From Cyanophora paradoxa CCMP329 (taxonomy: Eukaryota; Plantae; Glaucophyta), in the NCBI GenBank assembly GCA_004431415.1, contig QPMI01000584.1, positions 1 to 64,000 of the forward strand: a stretch of 64,000 bases of DNA, in the 5' to 3' direction. The position numbers and the translations under genes were made by a program. Below, one piece after another: positions 1-64,000 of the stretch (position 1 is the first letter of the stretch; every line of letters begins with the position of its first letter). The notes under the pieces were generated by a model. It was not told the origin of the DNA. It worked only from the letters and a program-made list of their open reading frames with translations, and did not search any database.

Positions 1-2964
1 CCTACATACTCCAGGATTGCAGAACCTGGCATCTCATTTTGTATTTTACCTGGGGTCATTCTGGAATCACCTCCAAGGTCTAATGCATAGGATATATTCT
101 CTATATCTGTTTCAAGGGTCTTAGATTCGATATATAGACAAAAGGAATCAGTATCATGGAATAGGTACTTTGGCTTTGGACCATTGGACCTCACAGTATC
201 ATAGAAGAACTTGTAGTTTGCGTTTGGCAGCATCCAAAACATAAGCCCCAATTGCAACTGGCTTATCTAGCTTCACATGTTTGTGTAAAACTCAAAGGCA
301 ACTGCTCTTTCACTTATGGGACTTGTTGATTTCACTAAAAGGGAGGCAGCATATTTATAAATAGTTTCTCAGTGTTGGCAATCTTAACTACAGATCTACC
401 TCTACATGATTCAATGCATTTTCCCATAGATGAATTATTCATGAGCTTATAGAAATCAGCCTCGAAATTTATTCACTGCTTTTCCTTCTCATATTCAGTG
501 TTCAGCTCAATGTAGGGTTTCATTACAGGAGCCACAGTAAATGATAGGACCCTGTGAACCTTTTTTAGTTTCACACCTTTGTCAGAATATACTGTAGAAG
601 AGGCTCAGAAATCACATAGTTGGTCACAGAACCAAAGGTTGCAGTTAGCTTAGGGGTCTTATCAAGCTCTTCTCCTGAGAGATCCAATAGACTTTTTGAT
701 ATTGTGATAATTCTGCATATTCTACTATTTTCTTGTTAATAATTAGGGGAAATCACTGTGATCTAGAAACAGCCTAATTGGGTAATCAAGATCAACTTCT
801 AGGAAACTGGATCTGTTATCTTGTGGGTTGAATTCGGTCTCCCATCTAAAATCACCAACTGGAATTGGCTGACTCAAACAGTAGCCATACAAGTTGTTAG
901 CATCAAACAGCATTAATGGGAGTTCTCACCATCAGCCTCAGCATACCTACAGGGCATTGTTGCAAAGCCACCCCTGATTCCCCTCTCAACAAATTCGTAT
1001 TGCTCTACATCACTTATTAGCTCTATTTTTGCCTTGGTGGTCCTAACATAGCATCCCAAGATAACCCAGGGCAGATACATAATGAACTGGTCAAGTCCAT
1101 ATACTGAGTGTGAAAGCATTCTAAAAGCCTGGAATTTGTTCATTAACTCATCTACATCAGCAGCTCCAAAATCCATGAAGTTACTTGCATCAATGAACTT
1201 GTAAAGACCCCATTGCAATGAAAGGTATTGATCAAAGTTTTCGAAAGGATTTCGATTCGCTTTTTATCACCCATGCCTGCTATTTTTCTGAAAATGAATG
1301 TCCCACAGTCATCCATTTGGTCAACAACAACTGCAACTTTGGTTTGCTTTGAGATTCTCCTATGGAGATTGCAGTTTCTGCATGCAGGAGCAATATAATG
1401 ACCTGTGTGGTGATCATGATCCCTGCATTTGAAGTTCTCTTGGTGAACCTCTCACTGCAAAGGTAACAGTGTTTGTAGCCTTGTAAATTGCTTTCTGCTC
1501 ATCTGTGAGTTCATTCATGGGAATATTGGTAACAGGAAGTCAATTAGCTCTCTTGCTTTGGATTCCAAGCATTCAAACAGACCTCCCATTGGATCCTGCC
1601 CTCAAATCGAAACTCCTGAACATCTGCCCCAGTGACTATTCTTATGTTGACTGCTGAGACTTCCTCTTGATTTGATGCATCAATGGGGATGCTTCTATGT
1701 TCAATCTTGCAGTATACCACAACAGGAAGCCCACAGTTTTCCTGAGGTTTTTCAGTCCAAACTCTATGGTGGTCTCAGGTTAGGGTGATTCCCTTTGAGA
1801 GTCTCCAATCAATGCATCTGTTTGAGTCCACATGAGCAGTGAGTTTAGCCTCAGACCTGAATCGAGATAAGCATGTATCACAGTAGTGTAACTTTTGATC
1901 CTTGGTTTTATCAAGGGCAACTCTGAGAAGTCTTGAAAGGGACATGATTGTAATATAGTGACCATTCCCTTCATCATCATGAATGAGCATGAGATTAATC
2001 TTTTGCTTTCTGCCTGGGTTGCTGGATTGATGTAGGGGATATATAACATCTCGATCCATTCCAAATATGTTTATGCTGATGCCTGCATTTTGAGATTCGA
2101 ATTTATCAATGATTTCAGCATCACAGGAACAGGGAATGGGATGTTATCGAAATTGAGAGCCAAAGGATTGTATGTGGTTGGTGAGTATTTCCATTTGCGA
2201 TATTGTGTAAGCTCACTTCTCTTGTGGGAATTCACATCTTTCCTATGGATCCATGCCAAAATGCATTTTCAAAGCAAGAATCATCAATATTTCGAATATT
2301 CACTGTGGCTCTCTTGGCTGCAATTGATTCAGGTGTTTTAACATAGCAGCCACCAGTTGGGCATAACTCATAATAGCAACTCTGAGCATTTCGATTCTCT
2401 CCAATCGATAGCTATCAACAACATTCATCTGTTCCTGACACATTTGGGCTGCTTTATTCAGCTCAGTTCGAATATTTCTCGATTTGGTTAATACAAAATA
2501 ATCACTGTAAATGTATTTCGATATCCAAACCTGTGGATTGCTGACTTTAACGAACTTGCAGATAAAAGATAAGCGAACTTTGATTGCCCTGAATTGATCT
2601 AGACTGTCTCTTAAACGTTTTGGAGAGAGGTTGCAATTCTATCTAAATATTCAATCACATCTACAACAACTTCCCTTCTGGCTCTGTATGTGAGCCAGCG
2701 ATATAATTCATTCATAGCTGTTCCATCTTCCGCCTCTGGTTCTATTTGCCTCAGGCGATCCAGTTCATCAAGAGTTTCAACTTTATCATAGAGGTTATTG
2801 GCTTTTCTGGTTAATTTTGCTAAAGTGGGTCTGCCCCTTGAAATAAATCCGATTTCCCGGTCATATTCAGCCTCTGTGATTTCATGGGCTGCATACAGTG
2901 TTCCCAGTAATCCCATGAGTTCCCATTTCTTCTCTCTAATGAGTCTGTTGCTAATTCGGGGCAT
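1..2964 (-). pseudogene. Protein-primed family B DNA polymerase, frameshifted, continues past base 1
   Basis: Fragments 2611-2964, 2071-2259, 1775-2059 and 913-1218 align in order with the intact PolB at 41416-44679 (MPRISNRLIREKK vs MPRQTNRLIKEKK; GHYITIMSLSRLL; QWGLYKFIDASNFMDF; IRGGFATMP). LFHDTDSF is readable on the minus strand near 141-165. Confidence 0.9.
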
Positions 2965-2998
2965 AGTTCCTAACTTGTTCCTACTCTCAACAAATATT

Positions 2999-3316
2999 TT
3001 ATTCTGAGATGTTCTGAACGCGATTTTCTAGTTTCTTTCGCAATTTGGCTTTGTAATGCATTGGATTATGTGATCCATTTTTTGTCCATACATTTGGGTT
3101 TTTGTGATACTGTTTAAGGGCGTTAATTAAGTTTTTCTCTGTTTGTAATCGCAAACAATCAATATCTTTGGAGGAAAGCTGTGACATTTGATACCCATCA
3201 CATTTGCTTTGGCATTTGATGATTTTGTCTATAAGAGCTGGTATATCCTTCAAATCATCTTTATCGAAATGTTTGTTCTCAATCATTGAACTCATTCTGG
3301 TAGTCCAGCTTGTCAT
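2999..3316 (-). CDS. Hypothetical protein
   Basis: 105-aa ORF between the helicase cassette and polB, with an AT-rich upstream region. No recognised motif. Confidence 0.5.
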   Translation of the reverse strand: MTSWTTRMSSMIENKHFDKDDLKDIPALIDKIIKCQSKCDGYQMSQLSSKDIDCLRLQTEKNLINALKQYHKNPNVWTKNGSHNPMHYKAKLRKKLENRVQNISE

Positions 3317-3370
3317 TGTTGTACTACTACTTATTATTATAAGAATATTATAATGTATTTGTTTTAAATC

Positions 3371-3512
3371 GTCAGGCAGACTTCGATTGTCAGGCAGCTG
3401 ATTCAGCCAACATTAAGAAACTCTGTCACTTTTTCAAGTCAGTGTTTGAGAAAACTAATGAAACCATAAACTTATAAAAGTTAAATAGAAAGGTGCCTGA
3501 CAGTGCCTGACA
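3371..3512. repeat. Iteron-like inverted-repeat cassette (TGTCAGGCA family), putative origin
   Basis: GTCAGGCA at 3371 and TGTCAGGCA at 3388, an AT-rich spacer, then TGCCTGACA at 3494 and 3504. Ends 5 bp from the helicase stop codon at 3518. Confidence 0.8.
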
Positions 3513-3517
3513 GCTTT

Positions 3518-5894
3518 TTAACAATCATCATCATCCTCATCAATAAACTCTGTTGTATTTTCCGAAATCAGTTTTACACACTTGTAACCTCTATCATATA
3601 CTTTTGAAGTTGCCTTTCTCACTGCATATTTGTCATATTTGGCTCCCAACATCTCCATTACTCTCTTAACCCTGCTTGCAGACATATTGAGTTTCAAAGC
3701 TTTTAACTCCTCATCTACAGTTTTGCTTGACAGAGAATCAGAAGGATTTCCTGTAAATTCAAATCTGCTTTTTAGTATTTGAATTTCATCACCTGCATCC
3801 TCTCTGAAAGCAGCAGTATCATTTGCCACCTTGCCACATATCTGGACTTTGTGGGATTTGTATGCTTGGAATACTGACCATTGGAAGCATGAATGATTTC
3901 AGGCGTTTAAGCAGATCACTTTTAATATCTTCAGAAGCCAATCTATAGCATGGGAGCTTCATTTCATCCATTGTTTTCTGATCCACAAACTTGTGGGGAT
4001 GCTGAAGAAAACAAGAGTCTCAAGTGTACAGATGGAGAAACAGGGGCATATCATTCATGATCATCCAGAGCCTACTTTGGAGTCTTATATTTTGCTCATT
4101 TCCATATAGGATTCGAATGCATTGAATATCACCACCAGATTCTTCTTTTTAATCATATTGCCATTTATCTTGATACTTGGATCGAAACATCAAACTTCAT
4201 CTCTTGGGTAAATGTTAAACGCGAAATTCACATGGTTTCATCCATTTAGCTTTTAGCCTCATCAGAATCTGAATGTTTGTCCATCAGGAAAGATTCTCCT
4301 CCAATAGTGTTACATAACCACTCCCCAAGTGTTCTCATTAAGATTGACATAAACTCCTTTTCCACAATTGCGCTCACCTGATGATAGTCCCATTGTTTAT
4401 CCTCTACTTTGCCTGCCATTGCTCTTGCTGTAAATTCGAGAGCAGTATTAATTGCATCTGCTCCAAACACAGGTTCAAGTATGTTTCGTAGAGGATTTTA
4501 TATGCTCTTCTGACGGCTTGACTACATATCCTCGATCATCTACAAGTAAATCTCTTTCAATTCTAGTAGTGGAATAGACGTTTTGACACTCTGCCCAAGG
4601 AGTAAGCTTTTTGGTTTCGAAATCATACACACCATTTTTATAACACAATTTTCCAAGAGATGAAGACCAAAGGACATTATTCACAAACTCACTATCATTT
4701 GGCAGAAGAGCTTTTGTAGCTTTGATTACTTTTGAGCGCCTGTTATATTTGCGGTATACTCTGTTAGACCTGTCAGACCCTCATGATAGATCTTTGCTTG
4801 AAGGCACTTCTTTAAAAGCATATTTTCCACTTGATTGGTTTCCTCAGTCCAAAGATTCTCATCTGTTTTGACAAATATACGACCATTGGATTGCTTGACA
4901 TCATTTTTGATATCTTCAGCAAACAGAGTAGCAGCCTCATAGTCTGTAGAGCAAATTCGAAAATCGTTTGCTTTCAGAGAAGCTTCATCTGGAAGCTCGA
5001 AACCCTGATCCATAGGCTTAACAACTAAGCCTAATTTGTATCCTGTGGACTGCTGGATATAGTTCTCTGCATCTTTGAGAATATCAGTAAGTTTTTCCAG
5101 TGATAGATTAGGTGACTTTTCAATCATGCAGCCATCAAATACAAGAACACCAACAGTGAGTTTGATGGAGGTTAAATACTCACACAGAGCCATAAGAGCA
5201 ATATTCTCGATCTGACAAAGAACCATGTTAACAGTGGAACCTAACACATTGTAGCCCTTCTTTCGCTTGCAAATAGCAAGGAAGTTGGTATTTTCTTTTA
5301 ATTCAGCAATAGAAGCATGAATACCACCAATTTCTTGTTTAACCTTTTTAAAAGCCATTTCTTTGTGTAAATCGGGACACTCAATGCCTCCTCCTCCGTT
5401 AATCACAGATAAGAAGGCGCACTTAATTTCTTCACGAGTAAGATCACACTTTTTGCTTAAATCACTAACGATTTTATCTCGATTGGCAACAAACTCAGCA
5501 AGGAAATCACAGTTTATGTCATTTTTTTGGCAATACTGGACGAGTATCGATGGATGAGCATTTTTCATATCAATATCATAATACAAATCCCTTGCTAAGG
5601 TGTGTCTAAATTCCCGAGGCATACTCTGCATGCTTGCTTTTTTGTTTTTGATGTGTGAGAGAGTAGTGAAATATCTCCAGTATGGTGTTTGCATTGATAG
5701 TATTTAACTTGAATGGTTCCATTTGAATGCAAGTCTTTCATGTATTTCTTCAGGAGAGTCAAAGTAGCAGTAGAATCCACATCAGGTCTATAACTCAAAC
5801 CCTCGAAATTATCGATTAAATACTTAAGAGTAGGGCGAGATACTTTTTCAACAAGAGTGATATCGAGATTGTTGGGTTTCTTTGAGCTAAACAT
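3518..5894 (-). pseudogene. TVpol (PolA-like primase-polymerase) fused to a D5-like SF3 helicase, frameshifted
   Basis: Motifs YYDIDMKNAHP, KCAFLSVINGG and VLVFDGCMI in 4726-5694. D5_N-like KNGVYDFET in 4475-4684. Walker A GERNCGKG readable in an alternate frame near 4355-4385. Winged-helix-like C-terminus in 3518-3829. Confidence 0.75.
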
Positions 5895-6031
5895 CTTTCT
5901 TGAACGTTTCTATATTAAGCAGATAAAATATTTTATCTGAAAATCCTTGTCATTTTTTGTTGCCAAACCTTTAAGTCCTTTTGGGTTGGCTTCCAGTTAT
6001 ATCGATAATTGGTAGTAGTGTATCAGTTTTT

Positions 6032-6298
6032 TTATGAATTCCCCACACAAAAATAATGAACCGGCATTTCAGTATTCCGAGGACGACCTACAGGTCGACC
6101 TTCTGGGAAATTTGGGTCAAATGTGAGTTGCTTTTTATAGTAGTAATAGGCTAATGCCCTTTTGCGGCGAATTTCACGATATTCCTCATCCTCTTCATAT
6201 CTTTTATTATAATAAATTTGGTTTGAGATCTTTTTCTTCATTGCAGAAGAGATCTTTTCAAAACTTTTGCTCTCAGTTACAGTTTGATCAGTATCCAT
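6032..6298 (-). CDS. Small basic AT-hook-like protein (paralog 1)
   Basis: RYEEDEEYREIRRKRALAYYY...GRPVGRPR; homologous to 7063-7308 and 48661-48954. Confidence 0.7.
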   Translation of the reverse strand: MDTDQTVTESKSFEKISSAMKKKISNQIYYNKRYEEDEEYREIRRKRALAYYYYKKQLTFDPNFPEGRPVGRPRNTEMPVHYFCVGNS

Positions 6299-6429
6299 TT
6301 GGGTATCTCTTAACTATAACCGAGAAAAATGTTTTGTCAGATTTCAATATGCTTGATTTCCTTAAGTAGTTTATGCGTTGTCATTTTTTGGTAACAGAGA
6401 TAATTCCTATACTGTTACCATAAATGGTT

Positions 6430-6613
6430 TGTCAGGCACTTTAAAATAGTTGTCAGGCACTAATATAGTATGTCAGGCATTGTCAGGCACCTTTTTAGAA
6501 AACTTTTCTATAATGAAAATTTCATTGTTGATCCAAACAATGACATTGAAGATTTTCAATAGTGTTTTAAAATCAATGTGTTTCCTGCCTGACAAACGTT
6601 TTACTGCCTGACA
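6430..6613. repeat. Iteron-like cassette (TGTCAGGCA family), second copy
   Basis: TGTCAGGCA at 6430, 6451, 6471 and 6481; AT-rich spacer; TGCCTGACA at 6586 and 6605. Near-identical in its first ~110 bp to the copy at 23419-23601. Confidence 0.85.
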
Positions 6614-6971
6614 ACCTTTCATCAACAAAAAATGATTGTGTAAACTGACTTAAAGATTTATCAGATATATTAATAAGAAAACAACAATGGCTGCTCAAAT
6701 CGCCAAAGGAATTCTTGCCGAAAAGATTGAGAAGATACCCTCTGGAAAGATCATAAAGGATTAGTTGATGCTATTGTAGAGAGTGGTCTCCACTCAACAG
6801 GAATAAACATTAATCAGGCTGATAATAAGCGAAACAAAGAATTTCGACAGAAAGTAGAAAGAGATGTATTGGGCATGATAATTGACCCAAACTACCTTTC
6901 CACAATTAACAAAAAAAATCATTCAAACACTGCCACAAGAAAACGACTCTTTAAGAAATTAATGAGTCGTT

Positions 6972-7082
6972 CTACTTCCTCTTAAAAAAAAGAGCCAATT
7001 CCTTTGTATATATTTTTATAGCTGCCTCAGTAGCATACTGAGACCGCTTTTTCTCAATTTTCTTATAGACCTGGGGGTCCAT
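6972..7082 (-). CDS. Conserved 36-aa micro-protein
   Basis: MDPQVYKKIEKKRSQYATEAAIK... aligns with the unlisted ORF 49005-49145 of element B (PDPDLYAILYRKRAQYALEVAIK). Confidence 0.6.
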   Translation of the reverse strand: MDPQVYKKIEKKRSQYATEAAIKIYTKELALFFKRK

Positions 7083-7308
7083 TGCTACTTTCAGTTGGCA
7101 AATAATATTTAATCGGTCTTCCTCTGGGTCTCTGCTCCTCTTTTTGGGCTTTTCTGCGATAATAGGATGCCAGGGCTTGCTGCTTCTTATACTCTCTATA
7201 TTCTGGGTCCTCTCTATATCGTTTCTGCATTGCGAGTATGTGTCTAATAGAACCCTCAGTAACAGGTTCATCACTGGTAAACTCGATTAAACTAATAGTA
7301 TCCTCCAT
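7063..7308 (-). CDS. Small basic AT-hook-like protein (paralog 2)
   Basis: RYREDPEYREYKKQQALASYYRRKA...PRGRP; closely matches 48661-48954. Confidence 0.75.
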   Translation of the reverse strand: MEDTISLIEFTSDEPVTEGSIRHILAMQKRYREDPEYREYKKQQALASYYRRKAQKEEQRPRGRPIKYYLPTESSNGPPGL

Positions 7309-7563
7309 TTATATTCCAGAGAAAACGTTTTCTGCTGGCAGAGAACTTCTCCTTGGATACTCCTGTTGCTCATATGTATACTCTGTGGGGTCTGCTGGCA
7401 TTGACTCCACAGAAACTGTAGACCTCCTTCTCTCTCTTGCTTCTGAGGCATTATCCTCATTATCTGACATCTCAAACTCCACTGTTGTCTCACAACATCC
7501 ACTGTGGCAATTGCTCACCACATGCAGACTGAACATCTCGAAGAACTTTCGTATTATGTCCAT
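7309..7563 (-). CDS. Small protein with HxxSxCxSGCC motif
   Basis: EMFSLHVVSNCHSGCCETTVEFEMSD matches EMFHLHFISHCKSGCCDTTVEFDISD in element B. Start placed at the aligned Met. Confidence 0.7.
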   Translation of the reverse strand: MDIIRKFFEMFSLHVVSNCHSGCCETTVEFEMSDNEDNASEARERRRSTVSVESMPADPTEYTYEQQEYPRRSSLPAENVFSGI

Positions 7564-8348: not shown

Positions 8349-9130
8349 TTATAAACCGCGTTTATATCGCATCAATTTATTGCTATGGACTTGGCTTTTC
8401 ACTTCTTTGGGGGCTTCCTCTTTCTCTGGTGGTTTCAGTTCATCTTCTTTCTTTTTTGGCTTTCTGTGGAAGCGAGGAAATGGGAAGTCTTTGACAAGCT
8501 CAGCTTTATCTACAAAGTATTTAACTGAGTAGCCAGCAGAGGACCAAACGATATACTGATAGGAGTGAACATACTCTTCAAACATCTTGTAGAAATCCTC
8601 TTTATTTCGCATTATATTGTATTCTTCCTCTATGGCTTCAAGTTCTTTGCGATTAGCAGCACTTAGGAAAACAGCATAATCAGAATTAACTCGAATAGTG
8701 GAAGAGACTTTTCTGAGTTTCTGTGTAATGCAGATAATGGATATTTTCGAATGGCGACCTCTGGAATACAAGGATCCGATTATTTTATCCCTTGTGAGAT
8801 CGACTATCTCATTATCAATTAAATCATCTAAAACAACACACATGTGGTTCACAGGTTCACCTTTTTCGATTTTCTCCTGCCTTTCATCCAAAAGCTTTGA
8901 AATGTAACCAGCATCCCATTTACCAAGTTCTACTGTTGCAACCTCTCTCCAGAATGATTAAAGCTGGTCCCACTCACAACTAGGACAACATCAATAACTT
9001 TGGCATCATGTAATTGCTTTAACCAATACTTTACACATTCGCTTTTTCCCGTACAACTTTTGCCTATAAAAATGGCTCTGAAAACACCTTTTATCATTTC
9101 AGAAACATTAAACTCTTCTAAATCTTGCAT
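8349..9130 (-). CDS. A32-like (FtsK-HerA) packaging ATPase, frameshifted near 8900-8950
   Basis: Walker A GKSCTGKS (8930-9130); Walker B VVLDD and the SRGRH...ICITQ motif (8349-8891). Homolog of 50416-51339. Confidence 0.85.
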
Positions 9131-9189
9131 TGTTGTAGATCTTCCTAAATAAAGACAGATAAAAATAATGCAGGGAGACTGAATATGGT

Positions 9190-10557
9190 CTATAAATTGA
9201 TTCTACGAACACCTGAACCGTCTATAATGAGGAAACTATGCATTAAAGCGCGAACTTGAACATTGATTGTCTTATCTGTGGGCATGTAGAGTGTGAGGAA
9301 TGAAGATGAGGAATTTGTCAGGTCAACAAATCCACTTTGAGCAATATTTCGAATCGCCTTCTCTCCATCAATGCAGAAACTTAAACCTGAAAGGACATAT
9401 TTATCTGCAACCTTATCCATGTTAGAGCATTTGAATGCATCAGCAATTAGCTCAGCACCTTTGAGTAGGGAAATTGGCTCAGTGGCATAAAGTCGTTGTC
9501 CATTAATTTCAACAGTGAAAGTAATATCTTTGGAGTTGGCATAGGTCTTAAGAACACTGTGGGAGCCATTGGATTTGTCAACAGTCTCATAATCACGAAC
9601 TGAAACAAGCAGAGCATAGACAAGACCTGAGATTTGAGAGAGGTTAATTCGATTGGGCTGGGCATTGCCCTTGGCAGGGAAAGCAATGGCATCTACAAAT
9701 CCAATATCAAGGGAGGGAATAGCCATGCCAGTAGTCTTTACTTTTTCAATTACAGTAGCGAAAAGCTCATCAGAAACATTAATAGCATGCATGTAAAGGC
9801 GAGGAGAAGTAATTGAAATAGCAGGGGTTGTTGCACCAAGACTGAAAGTGGTGATGTTTTGACCAACATGGGCAAGTGTAGCATTAGCAGTATCACCAAG
9901 ACCATCATCTTCTGTCTTATCAGCAGCTGTCCCACCAACAACAGGGAGAGAGCGACCACCATAGGAAGTTTCAACATAACCCTTTCCAGCATCCTTAAAC
10001 CAAACAGTAACAACCATTTCACCAGATAAAGCACCAAGGGGAAGGTAGTGATTTAGCCAAGGCACTGGGATTTCAACGAAAAATGAGCCACCAAGTCGGT
10101 TGGTTCCATGAGCAGGGATTCCATGAACCATGCCCATTGAGCGTTTCTTTTTAGCTAGTTGATCCTCCGAATAATAGACCAGGGGGAAATGAGCAAGGAA
10201 ATCAGAAGGAATGTGGTAGGTGTAAGATCCATAGGTAATTTCAAGTCGCTGAACTAAAGCACCAACTGGGCGAGTGTATCCATTGCGAACTAGATCTTCA
10301 CCAGCAAAAGTGATTTCTGGTAGGTCGAAAGCAAGTTCGAGTTTTCCACAGAAATTGTAGCGAGGTAGCTTGAAGGAAATGCGATTTCCAACATTATTCT
10401 CAAAAGTATTGCTGGGATTCACAACAACTAGAACTGGCTTAGACTTGGATTCGAGTCCAAGCATAAGGGAGTTATCCAGGAAAAAGGCTTTCGCCTCTTC
10501 TGGGGTTGTTAGGGCTTCTTTCAGCGAAAGTCTTTGAAGAGTGGAAGTGATATCCAT
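9190..10557 (-). CDS. Major capsid protein (putative double jelly-roll)
   Basis: About 455 aa, beta-rich, located between the ATPase and pentons. Shares FxLPRYN, LSQISGLVYAL and GxVDLTxSxSSFL with 51392-52840. Confidence 0.75.
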   Translation of the reverse strand: MDITSTLQRLSLKEALTTPEEAKAFFLDNSLMLGLESKSKPVLVVVNPSNTFENNVGNRISFKLPRYNFCGKLELAFDLPEITFAGEDLVRNGYTRPVGALVQRLEITYGSYTYHIPSDFLAHFPLVYYSEDQLAKKKRSMGMVHGIPAHGTNRLGGSFFVEIPVPWLNHYLPLGALSGEMVVTVWFKDAGKGYVETSYGGRSLPVVGGTAADKTEDDGLGDTANATLAHVGQNITTFSLGATTPAISITSPRLYMHAINVSDELFATVIEKVKTTGMAIPSLDIGFVDAIAFPAKGNAQPNRINLSQISGLVYALLVSVRDYETVDKSNGSHSVLKTYANSKDITFTVEINGQRLYATEPISLLKGAELIADAFKCSNMDKVADKYVLSGLSFCIDGEKAIRNIAQSGFVDLTNSSSSFLTLYMPTDKTINVQVRALMHSFLIIDGSGVRRINL

Positions 10558-22236: not shown

Positions 22237-22509
22237 ATGGATAGTAAAACAAAAAAGTTTATTGATGCTGCTATGACAGTTCATGGTAAAGATAAATTCG
22301 ATTACAGTGAGACACATTACATCAAAGCTCAAGAGAAAGTATCTGTGAGATGTTTGCAGTGTAACAAGGTGATCCTTACATATCCCTTTAATCATGTGAA
22401 GGGATCAGGTTGCAGGGACTGTAACAAAAGAAAGAGTCAAGCACACAGGAAAAGAGCTACTTCATCAATCAGAGTAGAGTATAGGGATATTTGCATTAGG
22501 TTTGACTAG
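22237..22509 (+). CDS. Zinc-ribbon protein (DUF723-like repeat)
   Basis: FIDAAMTVHGKDKFDYS..Y...KVSVRC..C...H..GSGC..C pattern. Confidence 0.7.
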   Translation: MDSKTKKFIDAAMTVHGKDKFDYSETHYIKAQEKVSVRCLQCNKVILTYPFNHVKGSGCRDCNKRKSQAHRKRATSSIRVEYRDICIRFD

Positions 22510-22532
22510 TTAATTTTTCTAAGGTATTCTTA

Positions 22533-22931
22533 ATGGAGACTAAATACAGAGGCTTTCATGTTATGCTTGATTACAAGGCTAAATCAGCTATAGCAACAGG
22601 TTATGAGCATGTTAGCTTCCTAGGTAATTGGATTATGGGAACCCTTGAACAAGCAGTATTGAGACAAGGTATTAGGATTGTTCATAAGCATTGTGAGATA
22701 TTTGATGGCAAACTATCACCTCCTGGTTTTGCTTTGGTTCTGCTATTAGATGAAAGCCATTGTACAGCTCATTGTTATTCCAATGAAGGCATGTTAGCAA
22801 TTGATATATTCAGTTGTGGTAAAGAAGCTCAGCATAAAACACAATCAGTAGCAGATGAGATCGATAAAACAATGAATTTCTTAACATTTGAGAAGACTGA
22901 GAGACATAAACATGATAGATTCCCGTTTTGA
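22533..22931 (+). CDS. speD: S-adenosylmethionine decarboxylase proenzyme family (prokaryotic-type, pyruvoyl)
   Basis: 132 aa with LLDESHCTAHCY (ESH self-cleavage site) and AIDIFSCG. Confidence 0.85.
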   Translation: METKYRGFHVMLDYKAKSAIATGYEHVSFLGNWIMGTLEQAVLRQGIRIVHKHCEIFDGKLSPPGFALVLLLDESHCTAHCYSNEGMLAIDIFSCGKEAQHKTQSVADEIDKTMNFLTFEKTERHKHDRFPF

Positions 22932-23207
22932 TGGGTTTCTATAATGATGATCAGGGTAATTTACCTTTTTTATTACAATGGCAATCGTTAAAAAAGGATA
23001 TAATATATCCTTTCCTACAATAGCTTTCTACAATGATTTTCTTTCTACAGTAGCTTTTGTTACAATAGAATTCTACTGTATGATGTAGCCGAAATATGAA
23101 TGCACCCTACATTAAGCAATGTCAAGTATTTCGAATACTATTCGATTTCCTTACAATAACACTCAGCATCTGCCCTAGATTCCCCCTATTACCCTATTAT
23201 TTAAGTG

Positions 23208-23765
23208 GACTCAAGGTTGACTCATATTAATCGTAAAAGTAGTAAAAGTATATGGATTTTGTTACGAATTCAATGGGAGGGTTGACTAAGTGGGTTGAGT
23301 TGACTCAAATTTCACAGGAAATAACAATGAATCAGAGTATAAATGCATTTTTTGAATCAACTACACCAACTAACACTGAGAAAGTAGAAGATATCATATA
23401 GTATTACCATATATGGTTTGTCAGGCACTATAATATAGTTGTCAGGCACTTATATAGTATGTCAGGCATTGTCAGGCACCTTTTTAGAAAACTTTTCTAT
23501 AATTCAAATTTCATTGTTGATCCAAACAATGACTTAGCCAAAATAAAATACTTTATGAAAATCGATAGATTTAATGCCTGACAAATAAATGCTGCCTGAA
23601 AGATTTAACACCAACTAACACTGAGATTTTCACAATATATGAGGTCCTTACTGAATATGGTTTGTGTGACAGGTGTGACAGGTTTATCCCGTGGATTTTA
23701 AAAATCAATTTCTCACTAGGACTTTCCTTGGGATTGACCTGTCACACCTGTCACACCTGTCACAC
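23208..23765. repeat. Tandem series of different iteron cassettes separated by a 19-bp direct repeat
   Basis: Degenerate GTTGACTCA cassette (~23208-23360); ACACCAACTAACACTGAGA (23363-23381); TGTCAGGCA cassette (23419-23601); the same 19-mer (23608-23626); TGTGACAGG x2 / CCTGTCACA x3 cassette (23664-23764). Confidence 0.8.
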
Positions 23766-24007
23766 CCAAAATCCTAAGGGTCCCCCTTAGACTCAACAAA
23801 ACAATGATAAAATCATATAAGTTTCATGTATAATTACGATTGGATTCAATAAGAGATCGATTTGTTAATATAAACAAATGAATCATTTATGGATCTTAAT
23901 CGAGTTTAGCGATATATTTCCGATTAAATGAATTAAATTTAATTAAATTTAATCGAGAAAGTACATGAATATAATATCGATTAAATCAATTAACTTTTAG
24001 ACCAATC

Positions 24008-24291
24008 ACACATAGTAAAATGCGGAGTTTTAACCAGAGGCAAGATCTAATTGAGATTCAGTTATATTATTCGGAAATATATACAGATTATCGATTAACT
24101 CAGTAAGACTAATCGGAAAATAAGAGAAATTTACGATAAAATATCGAAAAGAATACAAAATAATCGAAATAAATGAATATTCGATAAGATATACACAGAT
24201 TATCGATTGATTGAAATAGAATATACGAGATATATCAACAAAATCAATTAAGATTAAGCCGAGGGTTAAAACTCCGCATTTTACTATGTGT
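24008..24291. repeat. Terminal 28-bp inverted repeat of element A
   Basis: ACACATAGTAAAATGCGGAGTTTTAACC (24008-24035) and its exact reverse complement (24264-24291). Confidence 0.95.
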
Positions 24292-24299
24292 CAGGTCGG

Positions 24300-27200
24300 C
24301 GGGCTCCAGGCCGAACGCGACCCGGAGCTCCTCGGCCTGCGCCCGCCCCGCGATGTACGCCTGCGCTCGAGATCGCCCACGTGAGCGATGCGAACCAGCC
24401 GAGCGGCCGCAGCACTAGTACTGGAAGCGCGTCGACGCCAATCGCGAGAGAGCGGAGAATGTGCAGACCTTGTGGGCCGACTGGACGAAAGAGGCCCGCT
24501 GGCTCTCGGAGAGCTCGCCCTCGCGGACCTCCGCGCTCCAAATCGCAATCCCCGCCGCCTTCTCCGCCACGTACTTGGTCGACAGCGCGTACGCCATCGT
24601 GCCGCAGTTGCTTTCCTCCTGCAGATGCTCATACAATTAGCGAGCGACACCAAGCTGCGAGCAGACGCCGACGGCCTGGGGATCACCCAGGGAAACCAGA
24701 GCGCCGTTTCGACGAGCAGCCGCGTGGTGGGGTCCCCGAGGATGCCGAGCGAGTAGACGCTTCGACCTCGACTGTGCCACGCGTTCTGGCACAGGCGGCA
24801 GTCTTGCAGGCCGCACTCCTCCCCGGCCGCAGCATTGCCGGCGGCCGCAGCCGCCTGACTGGACTTGCGCATCCGCTGGTGCTCGAGGATCTGAGCGCTG
24901 AGGGCTTCCAGCTGCTCGATGCTGAGCGCATCCTCCGCGCCATGATAAAGCCCGGAGATGGGCGAAGCCTCCGGATCTTCGTTCAGACCCGGGCTCGAGC
25001 TCACTGGCGTCTTGAAGGCGTAGTGCATCAAACAGTGGGAGGCGGCGCTCATGTCCGCGGAGCTCTGCCAGTCGACGTTCTCTGCGACCGTGCAGTCCGT
25101 GCTGCGGCGATCGCGAGGGCGCTTAGCAGCTAGAGCTGCGCGCAGCGAACGGCGGGGCCCGGTGCGCACTCGAACGGCATCATGGCCAGGTCCGCGACCT
25201 CGCACCAGCGCGCGAGGAGCATCACGACAAGCAAACACCCCTCGGGGCGTCGCGTCGTGTCCAGCCACAGCGCCGCCTCCACCTTCTTTTGCATGGGCGT
25301 GGAGCGCTCGGACAGCACGTTCTCGCGGTCACGGTCGCTGCGCAGCGGACGGACGTGAGAGCTTGCAAATTGAACCCAGTACTAGTACTCGTGTGGGGCC
25401 AGGGCCGGGCGGGGCGGGGCCCCCCGCACCATGCAAGAAGAAGGGCCCCGGCGGCTAGCACCAGGCGGGCTGTGTCCTCGCTCTCCCCGGAGATGTTCTC
25501 CTGGTCGTGCCTCGGCAACTCGAGCTCTGGCGACAGGAGGTCACGCGGAGGCGCTCAAGCTTCCAGGGTACACAAAAGTTCGAATTCGAAGTCACCTCCC
25601 GCAAAAATCAACGGCGCGTTCTCCCTCAACTCATCTAGCCTCACCTGCGCACCGCGTCGTCAAAGCCGTCCAGGGCTCGTCTGGCAGATACAGACGGCAT
25701 GCGCACCTTCAGCCACTCGCCGAAACGCGCTCCACGATCATGATCAGCACCGGCGGCTTCACCGGGCGCTGCACGCGCAGCTGCAGCTGGAGCGCTAGCG
25801 GAGAGGGCGTCGCGGATGACCCAGACGGCCTGGACGCAGGGACAGACGCCCCAGACGAGCTCCGCCAGCCGCAGCGCGTCCGCCCGCTCCTCCTCCGCCC
25901 CCGGCCCTGCCGGACGTGTGCCCGTCAGCAGCCGCAGCGCGTGCTAGGGCTGGAGGCGAATCCAAGGACGGACCCGAGGTGCCGGCCGCAGCCCGGAGGA
26001 GGACGTGGATCTCTCCGAGGATTCGCCGCCAGAGCAAGGTCGCGCTGGGGACGTAGATGCTCGACAGGTGCGAGATGGACCGCGGGCTGCTGAGGGCCGC
26101 GATGCCGATCTTCGCCGCCAGAAAGTAATCGACCAGCTCCGGCTCCTCGACCCCCCAGCCGATGGCCTTCTCCGCGAGAGGCTTGTAGAGGCCCCACAGG
26201 CTTTTGTGAACCTTCTCCACTTCTGCATTGCACAGGAACAAGCGCCGCTCCAGCACCTCGATCGGTTCGCGATCCCCGAACCGCCCGAGGAAGTGCGCGA
26301 AGAGGCGCCGCCGCAGCACCGCGGGGCCGACATCGCCGGTAGGGACGCCGCAGCGCTCCGCCAAGCGCGGGGCCACGCTGTCGATGAAGCGGACCTGCGA
26401 CCCAGCATCAGTGCGCGCGTGGGTCAAATTGTATTAATCGAGCCTCGTTAAAAAGAGTACAAGAAGGTCGCACCGCAAACTCAAAGTGAGGGCGGTTTCC
26501 GGCGCCGAGAATGGCGGAGAACACCATAGGTGCGGCGCTCTCAACGTCCTCACTCGCGTCCAGCAGAACGGCACAGCGAAGGAGCCAGTCGCACTCGTCT
26601 GCTTCGCCGCACGGATGGTTGATCGAGCGACCGACCTGGGCGAGCAGCTGCAGCGAAACGCGCGCCAAGATGGCTGTGCTCGAGCCATCGTCCTGACGGC
26701 TCGCCGCAACGAGCGTCTGAGCTGCCGCTGCAATTCGCTCATCGCTCCCGCCCCCATTTCTTATTTGCAAGCCGTCGACGCAAAACAAGGAGCCGCCATT
26801 CTCGCTGAGATGCGTTCGGAGGAGGAAGTCTGCGATGCGGGCGGAGACCGAGCTGTCCAGAGAGCGGAGGGCCCGACCCCCTGCAGCTGCTTCGGCCGTG
26901 AAGAACCGGCAGAGCTCTTCCACGCCCACAAGATCGAACTGAGAAGAAAAGCACAATCAGTCAAGAATTCTGAAATAACACAAACGAAAATGATGCAGGG
27001 GGCGCGTTCTTACAAGTGGCGATCGACGCGGTGTATTCGTGTCCTCTGTCACAAGCAGTTCAATGCAGAATCTCCGGCGAGACTTGGCGCCCTCGTGCGC
27101 AGCACTGCCCGCCATCTCCAACAAAGCGAATACCAAGCGCAGGGCTTCCAGATATTGCCGAAGATTGAGGAGGCGCAGGAGACACGCCGCCAGCAGCGTC

Positions 27201-37229: not shown

Positions 37230-38690
37230 ACACATATAAAAACAAATATTATTATCCCTCGCGTTCCGCTCAGGATAATAATATTTGTTTTTATATGTGT
37301 GTTACTATAAGTTATATAAAGATATTAGCATTTTTATCATAGTGTATATCGATATGTGATATGTATTCTATCGGTAGTTCGTAAATGAATCAATAAAAAT
37401 AATATAAGTATCGTGGAATCTTTGTAAAATATGTATATATAATATGTAATCGCGATATAGCCGATATGTGTTTACGATGCGCGATGTGTATCTAAAACAA
37501 CTACAATGTGCTGCTTGGGACGCGCCTCATATAGTCATGTGTATCACCTACGTAGCTTCGATAGGGTGGGGCGGGTGGGGTGAGGTGGGGCATTTTTTGA
37601 ATTCCCTAAAATGTTTCACTCCCAAAAATTCTTGGTCAAAAAAGACCCCACCCAACCCCACTTACCCCACCCTGTATTATTCTCTTTATCTATGATTGAT
37701 TTCAATGTAATTTAAATATAAATATGTATGATTGAGTATGTTAAATTAATACTGGGTGGGGTGTGAGGGTGGGGTGTGAGTGGTATCGGTATGGTAGTCC
37801 AATCTAAGATGGCACACATAAAATCATGATGTGTTATTTTTACTTCCGGTTTGATACTTATCGGACTTCGATAACTTCGATAGGGTGGGGCGGGTGGGGT
37901 GAGGTGGGGCATTTTTTTGAATTCCCTAAAATAATTCCCCTCAAAAATTCTTGGTCAAAAAAGACCCCACCCAACCCACTTACCCACCCTGTATCTTTTA
38001 TTATATTTATGATTGATTTCAATGTAATTAATGTATAAAGTATAGAGATTATGTATGTTAAATTAATACCGGGTGGGGTGTGAGGGTGGGGTGTGAAAGT
38101 GGTATCAGCCAACCATTTAATAATTACGATATTGAACCGACGTGATACCGACGAGATATGATATATTCAGATCGTATTAGAACGGCGCGATCACTAAGAA
38201 AAACAAGTATCATGTGCTGTATATTTCGCGATCCCTGAATCGCGAATCGATAGGGTGGGGTGAGAAAGTGGGGCACCACCCTCACTGTATACACTGTGAT
38301 ATGATCGCAATCCCGATGTAGCCTACTATGATATCGTGCGGACTTCGATAGGGTGGGGTAAGTGGGGTGAGGTGGGGCATTTTTTTGAATCCCTTAAATT
38401 TTTGGGGGTCAAATATTTTTGGGCAAAAAAGACCCCACCCAACCCCACCCTCCCACCCTGTATTACTTATCGATACACCTCACTTATTTCAATGTATAAA
38501 CTCTATTAAATTAGATAGTAAATATGTATAGAAATAACGAGATTGTAGTATAGGGTGGGGTGTAGGGTGGGGGCAAAATGCAAACTGAATCAGTGCGATA
38601 TAATTTAGTGAACACAAAGTGGATATGAAGTGGATACTAAGTGGATACGAAGGGGATAAGTGCGCCCCGCCCACTATGCAAGATACATGC
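37230..38690 (+). repeat. Left TIR of element B (~1.46 kb), with terminal hairpin and three GGTGGGG cassettes
   Basis: 37554-38690 is the reverse complement of 62862-64000. Perfect 28-bp stem at 37230-37257 / 37273-37300. Cassettes at ~37556-37790, ~37875-38108 and ~38343-38574. Confidence 0.92.
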
Positions 38691-45663: not shown

Positions 45664-45705
45664 GCCGATTGTATACGTTGTAAATTACTGACGTTTTTTG
45701 TTTTT

Positions 45706-45920
45706 CGATAGGGTGGGGAGGGTGGGGTGAGGTGGGGCATTTTTTGAGTTCCAATAAAAAATTCTCCCACCCAAACATTTTGGGCAAAAAAGACCCCACC
45801 CAACCCCACCCTCCCACCCTGTATTAACAACCATGATTTACACTGAAATTCAATGTGTTTTAAGTTATAAAAATAAGATATATCAATGTTAGAATGAAAC
45901 CAGGTGGGTGTAGGGTGGGG
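45706..45920. repeat. Internal copy of the TIR GGTGGGG iteron cassette, abutting the helicase stop codon
   Basis: CGATAGGGTGGGG..GGGTGGGGTGAGGTGGGGCATTTTT...CAAAAAAGACCCCACCCAACCCCAC...GGGTGGGG, directly followed by TCA (stop on minus strand) at 45921. Confidence 0.88.
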
Positions 45921-51391: not shown

Positions 51392-52840
51392 TCATGCCGT
51401 CACTCTAGACAATCCATTGGCATTCATTACAAGAATATTGTGGCAGTAAGCCGAGATCTGAACACCGACCTTTGTCCAGGTGGCGAGGGGTGTGCCATTG
51501 GGTGTGAGGAGCAGGAAACTTGAAGCTGATTGTGTTAGATCGACATAGCCAGTCGCCTTCTCACCTTTGAGCGCCGCTTTACCATCGAGGGCAAAGCAGA
51601 AGCCAGTGTAAATGGGGCGCTTGTTGCTATCGATCCAGTTAGTCATCTTGAATTTATCGGCGAGCTCCATAGCCGCGGATTGCAGCGGGACACCAGTGTT
51701 GGAATATAGGTAATTGTTGTTATTTAGAACTTGCATCACGACATTATCATCGAAGGCAAGGGTGCGGACAGTAGAGTGCCCTCCGAAATTGTTGCCGAGT
51801 GCATTTTCGTCGCGAATCTTGACAACAAGTGCGTAAACAAGTCCAGAAATTTGAGATAGTGACAGGCGGAGACCGGAGCCGAGAGCTTGACCGGTATAAT
51901 CCGCAAACTGAATATCAGTGTATGGGATGGCGATGCCAGAGGTCTTAACACGAGTAATGATTTCGCCCATCGTTTCCTCATCGATGTTAACAGCATCCAT
52001 AATAAGACGAGGGGTCGTCATTTCCAGATTCGCAAGAGCAGGTGTAGGTGTGAGAGCCGCACTATCGAAAATCGCAGTGGCACCCGAGTGAGCTAAGGTC
52101 TTAATATTTCCGAAAGCAGCCGCTTGAGCAAGCGTTGTCTCGCCATCAGTAGAATTGGTCGCAGTAATTGCAGCGGCGTTATTCTGAGCGTAAACGCCAG
52201 GAACCGCCGCAGTTTCGAGAAGCGCAGGGGTTTGGAAATATACTTCGACCGCGATTTCGGATGGGAGCGCACCGATGGGCACGCCAGCATCGAGGAAACT
52301 CGGAATTCGCATGGTAAAAATGCCGCCAGCTTGGTTGCCGCCCTCTACCTTCGGTCCGAGATGCAGCCCATGCTTGCGCTTCTTTTGGTCGAATTCAGCC
52401 GGAGTGTTAGCCAGGAAAGCGTAATCTACCAGTCGCTCAGCCGGAATAATTTGCTCATACGACCCGTATTTAATGCTGACTCGCTGAACAAACGAGCCAG
52501 GAAGCCCGCGGACGAATCCAGTATTGAATAGATCAGCCGAGCAGTCAGCAGAGGTCTTGGCGATGGCAGTCAGCGCCTTTGCCGTAGGGATGGTAACTTG
52601 GAGGCTAATACCATTGCACCAATTGTAGCGAGGGAGGTAGAAGACCACACGAGTGGTAGCACCAGTAGAGGAGAACAGATTGCCGGGATCCGCAATTGGA
52701 AGCACCTCCACACGAGAAGGCTTGAATTGTTTGTCCACACCCACAATAAATCCGCGATCCAAAAGCATGCTCTTGTAATCCTCCGGGGTTTCGAGGACGG
52801 ATTTGAGCGTGAGGCGGCTAAGCGAGGTCGTGGGATCCAT
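51392..52840 (-). CDS. Major capsid protein (putative double jelly-roll)
   Basis: 482 aa, homolog of 9190-10557, in the canonical position next to the ATPase and penton. Confidence 0.75.
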   Translation of the reverse strand: MDPTTSLSRLTLKSVLETPEDYKSMLLDRGFIVGVDKQFKPSRVEVLPIADPGNLFSSTGATTRVVFYLPRYNWCNGISLQVTIPTAKALTAIAKTSADCSADLFNTGFVRGLPGSFVQRVSIKYGSYEQIIPAERLVDYAFLANTPAEFDQKKRKHGLHLGPKVEGGNQAGGIFTMRIPSFLDAGVPIGALPSEIAVEVYFQTPALLETAAVPGVYAQNNAAAITATNSTDGETTLAQAAAFGNIKTLAHSGATAIFDSAALTPTPALANLEMTTPRLIMDAVNIDEETMGEIITRVKTSGIAIPYTDIQFADYTGQALGSGLRLSLSQISGLVYALVVKIRDENALGNNFGGHSTVRTLAFDDNVVMQVLNNNNYLYSNTGVPLQSAAMELADKFKMTNWIDSNKRPIYTGFCFALDGKAALKGEKATGYVDLTQSASSFLLLTPNGTPLATWTKVGVQISAYCHNILVMNANGLSRVTA

Positions 52841-62861: not shown

Positions 62862-64000
62862 GCATGTATCTTGCATAGTGGGCGGGGCGCACTTATCCCC
62901 TTCGTATCCACTTAGTATCCACTTCATATCCACTTTGTGTTCACTAAATTATATCGCACTGATTCAGTTTGCATTTTGCCCCCACCCTACACCCCACCCT
63001 ATACTACAATCTCGTTATTTCTATACATATTTACTATCTAATTTAATAGAGTTTATACATTGAAATAAGTGAGGTGTATCGATAAGTAATACAGGGTGGG
63101 GAGGGTGGGTTGGGTGGGGTCTTTTTTGCCCAAAAATATTTGACCCCCAAAAATTTAAGGGATTCAAAAAAATGCCCCACCTCACCCCACTTACCCCACC
63201 CTATCGAAGTCCGCACGATATCATAGTAGGCTACATCGGGATTGCGATCATATCACAGTGTATACAGTGAGGGTGGTGCCCCACTTTCTCACCCCACCCT
63301 ATCGATTCGCGATTCAGGGATCGCGAAATATACAGCACATGATACTTGTTTTTCTTAGTGATCGCGCCGTTCTAATACGATCTGAATATATCATATCTCG
63401 TCGGTATCACGTCGGTTCAATATCGTAATTATTAAATGGTTGGCTGATACCACTTTCACACCCCACCCTCACACCCCACCGGTATTAATTTAACATACAT
63501 AATCTCTATACTTTATACATTAATTACATTGAAATCAATCATAAATATAATAAAAGATACAGGGTGGGGTAAGTGGGGTTGGGTGGGGTCTTTTTTGACC
63601 AAGAATTTTTGAGGGGAATTATTTTAGGGAATTCAAAAAAATGCCCCACCTCACCCCACCCGCCCCACCCTATCGAAGTTATCGAAGTCCGATAAGTATC
63701 AAACCGGAAGTAAAAATAACACATCATGATTTTATGTGTGCCATCTTAGATTGGACTACCATACCGATACCACTCACACCCCACCCTCACACCCCACCCA
63801 GTATTAATTTAACATACTCAATCATACATATTTATATTTAAATTACATTGAAATCAATCATAGATAAAGAGAATAATACAGGGTGGGGTAAGTGGGGTTG
63901 GGTGGGGTCTTTTTTGACCAAGAATTTTTGGGAGTGAAACATTTTAGGGAATTCAAAAAAATGCCCCACCTCACCCCACCCGCCCCACCCTATCGAAGCT
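62862..64000 (-). repeat. Right TIR of element B (truncated by window end)
   Basis: Reverse complement of 37554-38690 with only small homopolymer differences. Confidence 0.95.

Follow-up and report, generated by a model that had tools for sequence, protein, structure and literature searches.

The window, the whole stretch of 64,000 nucleotides analysed here, contains two AT-rich virus-like elements (A and B) embedded in the GC-rich (55-70%) DNA of a single-celled eukaryote. Element A, whose left end lies beyond the window, covers everything up to 24291, and element B occupies the sequence from about 37200 onwards. According to Pfam, B encodes a pPolB (PF03175), an rve integrase, a PriCT-2/DUF5906 primase-helicase and an A32 ATPase, and terminal inverted repeats and integrase are both present. 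Element A is a degraded endogenous Polinton-like virus (PLV), with the region at 23010-23765 forming its non-coding right end. The pPolB of A persists as broken pieces that are 41-65% identical to the pPolB of B, the A32-type packaging ATPase of A (Pox_A32 match at 8349-8843) is a broken homolog of the ATPase of B, and three capsid-block ORFs of A are homologous to those of B with their order kept. The helicase slot is occupied by a PriCT-2/DUF5906 primase-helicase in B versus a broken TVpol-SF3 helicase in A.

The putative capsid ORF of A (9190-10557) was assigned by size and position and has no Pfam match. Relatives of the encoded protein are restricted to the ORF of B, P0037 and P0038, and its sole close relative, at 58% identity, is a EukProt gene model. 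Among 1.84 billion representatives, the putative capsid proteins of A and B (51392-52840) have two relatives, and a capsid alignment search recovered no related viral loci. Additional genes of A include an S-adenosylmethionine decarboxylase (AdoMetDC) gene adjoining the end region (22533-22931) and one for a patatin-like phospholipase with a fused F5/8 type C domain (12572-14128). Element A ends at the GC-rich host junction with a terminal inverted repeat pair (24008-24291, 41-nt arms) that forms a strong hairpin (z -8.9). This inverted repeat starts with ACACATA and ends with TATGTGT, as does one at or near an end of B (37230-37300, 28-nt perfect arms), and the viral locus L066 likewise terminates in a perfect hairpin. 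An Rfam match of the terminal inverted repeat of A to a microRNA hairpin was sub-threshold and was rejected.

Candidate origin cassettes at the end of element A

The end region of A (23006-23766) is a succession of short-repeat clusters on the forward strand. An earlier note had described it as an array of different origin-like cassettes punctuated by a 19-bp direct repeat, and rechecking positions in the sequence located every cassette and repeat that it had named. The leftmost cluster consists of TYCTACART-like direct repeats (23006-23080). Three of the five TYCTACART matches in the window fall within 23013-23051, all of them direct. The TTCTACA cluster is thus real but weak, and it lacks an inverted block, so that its presence was confirmed while its standing as an origin-type cassette was not clear. 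The GTTGACTCA cassette (23205-23362) has four direct copies and one inverted copy with at most one mismatch. At this tolerance, 5 of the 12 window matches cluster within 157 bp (23205-23361), in agreement with the degenerate cassette proposed earlier. The window total of 12 is no excess over the 12.8 expected by chance, and the clustering alone is unusual. The GTTGACTCA cassette is degenerate in comparison with the clean two-block TGTCAGGCA and TGTGACAGG cassettes, and it is the deepest part of the end region in host read contigs.

The first copy of the 19-bp direct repeat ACACCAACTAACACTGAGA (23363-23381) is followed by an inserted TGTCAGGCA cassette (23382-23607) with a leader (23406-23417), four direct 9-mers (23419, 23440, 23460 and 23470), a 95-bp spacer and two inverted copies (23575, exact, and 23593, with a mismatch). 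The second copy of the 19-mer (23608-23626) is identical and lies exactly 245 bp from the first, as the earlier note had stated, with no further copy in the window. Across 1000 dinucleotide shuffles of 23010-23765, direct repeats reached at most 15 nt, compared with the 19 nt observed. The TGTGACAGG cassette (23650-23766) comprises a leader (23650-23661), two direct 9-mers (23665 and 23674), a 53-bp spacer and three inverted copies (23738, 23747 and 23756). Both the TGTCAGGCA and the TGTGACAGG cassette begin after ATATGGTTTGT, which starts about 30 bp past each 19-mer, again as claimed. The leader ACYRWWWATGGT precedes the TGTCAGGCA end copy, the TGTCAGGCA copy upstream of the helicase of A and the TGTGACAGG cassette, and it has seven matches at five places in the window versus 0.2 expected. 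The leader ACTGAATATGGT is also found at 9178-9189, directly behind the stop codon of the putative capsid ORF and ahead of the ATPase gene, a position at which it may serve as a promoter or terminator instead of belonging to an origin.

Direct and inverted copies number 4+2 in the TGTCAGGCA, 2+3 in the TGTGACAGG and 4+1 in the GTTGACTCA cassette. The AT content of cassette spacers is 78% (TGTCAGGCA end copy), 75% and 64% (TGTGACAGG) versus 68% in the surrounding kilobase, and the TGTGACAGG spacer is thus not AT-richer than its surroundings. The end-region cassettes adjoin no helicase gene. Judged by their short repeats, spacer and inverted repeats, the three cassettes at the end of A resemble SaPI origins and are candidate origins. 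A regular array punctuated by the 19-mer did not hold up. Repeat-spacer or integron-like arrays have at least three conserved repeats separating units, whereas the 19-mer has only two copies, and the next best look-alikes match 10 of 19 positions, which is background level. On the same grounds, degenerate 19-mers were rejected as a closing element of every unit. The two 19-mer copies more plausibly mark the edges of a single insertion than punctuate a regular array.

Helicases and their adjoining cassettes

The TVpol (PolA-like)-SF3 helicase gene of A (3518-5894, reverse strand) is broken by stops and frameshifts. A TGTCAGGCA cassette lies downstream of the gene (3371-3512, reverse strand) with its first repeat 5 nt past the stop codon, and a further copy lies upstream, on the other side of the helicase (6405-6614, forward strand). 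The claim that the TGTCAGGCA type at the end matches the cassette beside the helicase of A proved correct, and the closer match to the end copy is the upstream one (85% identical over 192 bp, 164/192). Both helicase-flanking copies lack the 19-mer. The C-terminal 126 aa of the helicase gave a structure prediction with a pLDDT of 83, whose best structural matches are RFX winged helices (Z 8.8, rmsd 2.7, 77 aligned; and Z 8.3). The phage P4 origin-binding domain matched at Z 5.3, and Foldseek returned no match for the same model at E 0.001. A profile built from full-length relatives of the helicase has SaPI5 PriRep5 (7OLA) as its best PDB match (E 3e-9). The C-terminus of the TVpol-SF3 helicase is hence predicted to be a winged helix.

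In element B, a GGGTGGGG cassette (45703-45920, reverse strand) follows directly (0 nt) on the stop of the PriCT-2/DUF5906 primase-helicase. The word is G-rich, and besides the single cassette at the helicase stop, B has three such cassettes per terminal repeat (left repeat at 37553-38690 on the forward strand, mirrored at 62862-64000). Elements A and B have pPolB, ATPase, capsid-block genes and gene order in common but differ in helicase and cassette word, and each bears the cassette word of its own helicase at the element end. Element B lacks the GTTGACTCA and TGTGACAGG words and carries only the word of its helicase in repeated end cassettes. Four direct 11-bp AGTGGATA-type repeats occupy the inner edge of the terminal repeat of B (38607-38661, mirrored near 62890-62945), placed like the TTCTACA cluster of A. 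The pPolB, of which A also has pieces, would initiate at termini without an internal origin, which counts against cassettes serving as origins in A.

Sibling copies in the host

Twenty public runs of the same organism contain this stretch. Contigs of four runs (X1, X2, X11 and X16) were compared with 22400-24500, and contigs of two runs (X1 and X2) with 2300-7400. Contig depth is a rough measure, and host depth past the junction was 66.7 (X1), 106 (X2), 23.1 (X11) and 29.5 (X16), with depth dropping to this level after about 24300. The family of A is highly multicopy, with about 82 times host depth at the AdoMetDC gene in three runs. The helicase resides in a low-copy module (2985-6990, approximate borders) delimited by a depth step and by loose ends at 2985, 2987 and 6993. 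Depth in the module is 243-360 in X1 and 383-486 in X2, or 3.6-5.4 times host depth, compared with 3,000-6,700 at single positions in its flanks (28-63 times host depth). Judging from this low depth and from the loose ends on either side, most siblings carry something else in the module slot, and the helicase module represents a swappable minority variant in a high-copy family. The loose ends at the module borders (24-30 letters) contain no GTTGACTCA or TGTGACAGG repeats.

Depth inside the TGTCAGGCA insert, relative to the depth just before it, is 9% in X1, 9% in X2, 10% in X16 and 29% in X11. One contig of X16 has a junction from 23368 to 23613 without the insert, and contigs of both X16 and X2 join 20 letters that match 23343-23362 (19/20; the right arm of GTTGACTCA) straight to 23608. 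Since these joints skip 23368-23613 and 23362-23608, element ends without the TGTCAGGCA insert exist. The arrangement is therefore variable among siblings, as the earlier note had anticipated. The TGTCAGGCA insertion between the 19-mers thus has filled and empty forms, and a target-site duplication of the MITE kind would look the same here as a crossover in a shared site. A joint skipping 23037-23166 is found in two of the four runs. The ratio of depth between the TGTCAGGCA end copy and the helicase is 2.6-3.8, versus 2 under strict linkage with both ends of helicase carriers.

The GTTGACTCA and TGTGACAGG cassettes have family-wide depth, at about 60-150 and 135-990 times host depth at single positions. 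The host also contains both cassettes in a second left context, which sets in at the shared leader or close to it (loose ends ahead of 23646 for TGTGACAGG and ahead of 23278 for GTTGACTCA). These second left contexts are as expected for helicase-flanking copies, and their letters match no identified gene. No sibling with GTTGACTCA or TGTGACAGG beside a helicase was seen among the host contigs. The earlier proposal of a collection of origins for several helicases hence gains from the origin-like build of the cassettes and the swappable module, and loses from this missing association. Loose ends near 23680 mark siblings with a variant of the TGTGACAGG cassette in which the repeat word is changed, a hint that the family may include additional cassette types.

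Cassettes beside helicases in viral datasets

Two TVpol-helicase alignment scans of IMG/VR, with the best 80 loci retained from each, yielded 117 distinct loci, among which 99 have a complete gene and the following 370 nt. A detector of two-block cassettes (7-mers, at least four copies, both strands) found a cassette within 370 nt past the stop of 31 of the 99 TVpol helicases versus 12 of 673 other ORF stops (Fisher p 1e-20). As controls, the detector returned 7 cassettes at 92 helicase starts and none in 495 shuffles. No cassette was detected at 68 of the 99 helicases, including the closest full-length relative (L008/L084). The cassette word varies between viral elements and co-varies weakly with the helicase tail (Mantel p 0.13). 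Nearest helicase-tail neighbours share a 5-mer in 7 of 25 cases against a null of 2.2 (p 0.018), with pairs that are not independent. Extra non-coding copies of the own cassette word are found in L021, L063, L066 and L078, and those of L066 lie near its hairpin end. No second case of differing two-block cassettes side by side was found among the 117 loci. L066 was considered as a second mixed array and rejected, as its other repeat is the terminal hairpin.

Pattern scans of IMG/VR, run for two words only, returned 24 GTTGACT-type and 35 TGTGACAG-type loci, of which 17 and 19 were left after 23 duplicates or near-duplicates had been removed by eye. Pfam searches covered 39 of the 51 nearby ORFs, with DUF5906, D5_N, VapE, DUF3987 and DUF927 counted as primase/helicase families. 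A gene of these families lies within 700 nt at 8 of the 19 TGTGACAG loci and at 3 of the 17 GTTGACT loci. Many GTTGACT matches fall inside genes and are likely due to chance. Because the viruses are unrelated phages, the loci show convergence only. They show that a helicase-side role is possible for the TGTGACAG and GTTGACT words, which is not evidence for such a role in the family of A. The expectation that the words stand beside other helicases was thus borne out for primase-helicase genes of unrelated viruses, with no case seen in the family of A itself. In phage loci L188 (3481-3651) and L196 (4001-4082), a TGTGACAG cassette lies just upstream of a 1,270-1,300 aa DUF5906-helicase-domain protein. 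The giant-virus-like contigs L163 (3987-4223) and L167 (3988-4451) carry GGTTGACT...AGTCAACC cassettes upstream of a C2H2 zinc-finger gene, two of them in tandem in L167. The elements with these cassettes may be related to the MIGE elements of giant viruses. Alignment with L163 and L167 is poor, and the likeness is confined to a short word. Metagenome scans gave no match for the 28-nt junction and five chance matches for the leader pattern, all without cassettes, and a viral scan for the TGTCAGGCA cassette gave none.

Comparison with known systems

In SaPIs, the iterons recognised by a winged-helix domain are located immediately downstream of the gene, on either side of an AT-rich centre, according to the available text of PMC9371898. 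As described there, SaPI5 PriRep5 and the helicase of A are alike in joining a primase and an SF3 helicase with a C-terminal winged helix, which is predicted in A, and both the SaPI origin and the cassettes of A and B have opposed short-repeat blocks around a spacer directly after the gene. Element A differs in being a eukaryotic PLV with a PolA-like TVpol instead of an AEP-type primase, and with 9-mer repeats. In contrast to the SaPIs described, A also carries copies upstream and downstream of the gene and again at the genome end, as well as several differing words adjacent to each other. TVpol-S3H and AEP-S3H are common PLV replicases (PMC12220804, available text).

Replicases of Polisuviricotina have been described as swappable modules bracketed by repeats (bioRxiv 10.64898/2026.10.13.758929), and a PLV end-module model proposes inverted repeats as origins for the primase-helicase (PMC11296320). 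Element A matches the former in a replicase swapped among related elements and bracketed by repeats, and the latter in candidate origins for a primase-helicase in repeats. The available text of these two sources contains neither the word "iteron" nor helicase-specific words, and it does not describe a mixed cassette stack or a filled/empty end polymorphism. The Vibrio phage satellite PLE resembles A in having several repeat types in one non-coding stretch, one of which in PLE represents cognate iterons. PLE differs in its RepA_N initiator and bacterial host, and its other repeats are not identified as foreign origins in the text available (PMC7145576). PgVV/Gezel-14T is, like A, a TVpol PLV, and PgVV has terminal repeats of isolate-variable units, but the available text draws no link from these units to helicases or origins (bioRxiv 10.1101/2022.07.28.501842). 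No iteron-type origins or mixed origin stacks in PLVs were found in the accessible literature, mostly from non-subscription journals.

A proposed record of helicase swaps at the element end

On balance, we lean towards the end of A being an accreting pad of replication origins that records helicase swaps, with the GTTGACTCA and TGTGACAGG cassettes stemming from present or earlier helicase modules of siblings. Start sites probably accumulate at this end in the course of helicase exchange, because the middle cassette is a copy of the helicase cassette and is missing from most siblings. Each cassette is predicted to act as an iteron origin that a primase-helicase would recognise through its winged-helix tail. 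The hexameric helicase might bind the repeats, melt the spacer and open the genome near its ends. A helicase module would arrive together with its own origin, and a copy of that origin could enter the end by recombination at, or duplication of, the 19-mer, with older origins staying behind. The GTTGACTCA and TGTGACAGG cassettes would then probably be origins of helicase modules that siblings carry now or carried earlier. A tentative and rather doubtful extension is that PLVs use SaPI-like helicase-specific iteron origins, with a stack growing at the 19-bp site and a single genome that several sibling-encoded helicases could open.

The main rival to an origin pad holds that only the middle cassette is a copy of a helicase origin, and that GTTGACTCA and TGTGACAGG act throughout the family as constant end signals for other viral proteins, such as pPolB/terminal protein, the packaging ATPase, the integrase or a transcription factor. 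Only the middle cassette would be inserted, and there would therefore be one insertion and no collection. The family-wide depth of both cassettes and the lack of either beside a helicase in host contigs would fit such constant signals, and PLE satellites combine four repeat types in one non-coding region, one being the iteron set (PMC7145576, available text). We regard constant end signals as unlikely, given that GTTGACTCA and TGTGACAGG have the two-block layout too, that TGTGACAGG has the leader ACYRWWWATGGT in common with the helicase-flanking cassette type, and that the same words follow primase-helicases in phages. Furthermore, B has the same core genes without either word, and only the word of its own helicase is at its ends.

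The direct repeat on both sides of the TGTCAGGCA insert, along with its filled and empty forms, could also point to cassettes being small selfish units that form the MITE-like ends of a mobile helicase module and insert preferentially at a 19-bp site, with the stack as neutral clutter. Repeats bracketing replicases have been taken as signs of mobility (bioRxiv 10.64898/2026.10.13.758929, available text). Selfish ends are improbable, however, as the 19-mer is absent from both helicase-flanking copies, the depth of host DNA gave no sign of spread outside the element, and the recurrence of own-word copies at the ends of B and L066 suggests selection. The use in trans or decoy role that the earlier note had considered found no supporting evidence. 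A role for foreign cassettes in decoying the helicases of rival elements or of a giant helper virus, or in serving them as borrowed origins, would be in keeping with one nucleus housing hundreds of related copies and with the cassettes before zinc-finger genes in the two giant-virus-like contigs. The resemblance to these contigs in no more than a short word, and the absence of the word of B from the end of A despite B being 13 kb away, make decoys or borrowed origins very improbable.

Replication starts of PLVs are hypothesised, with no mapping found in the accessible literature, and the cassettes at the end of A provide short candidate origins with a predicted reader domain. The comparisons of A with B and of filled with empty ends represent a natural helicase-swap experiment within one genome. 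An origin pad at the element end may explain how replicases could be exchanged frequently without a mismatch between helicase and origin, as the origin would travel with the gene and be copied to the ends.
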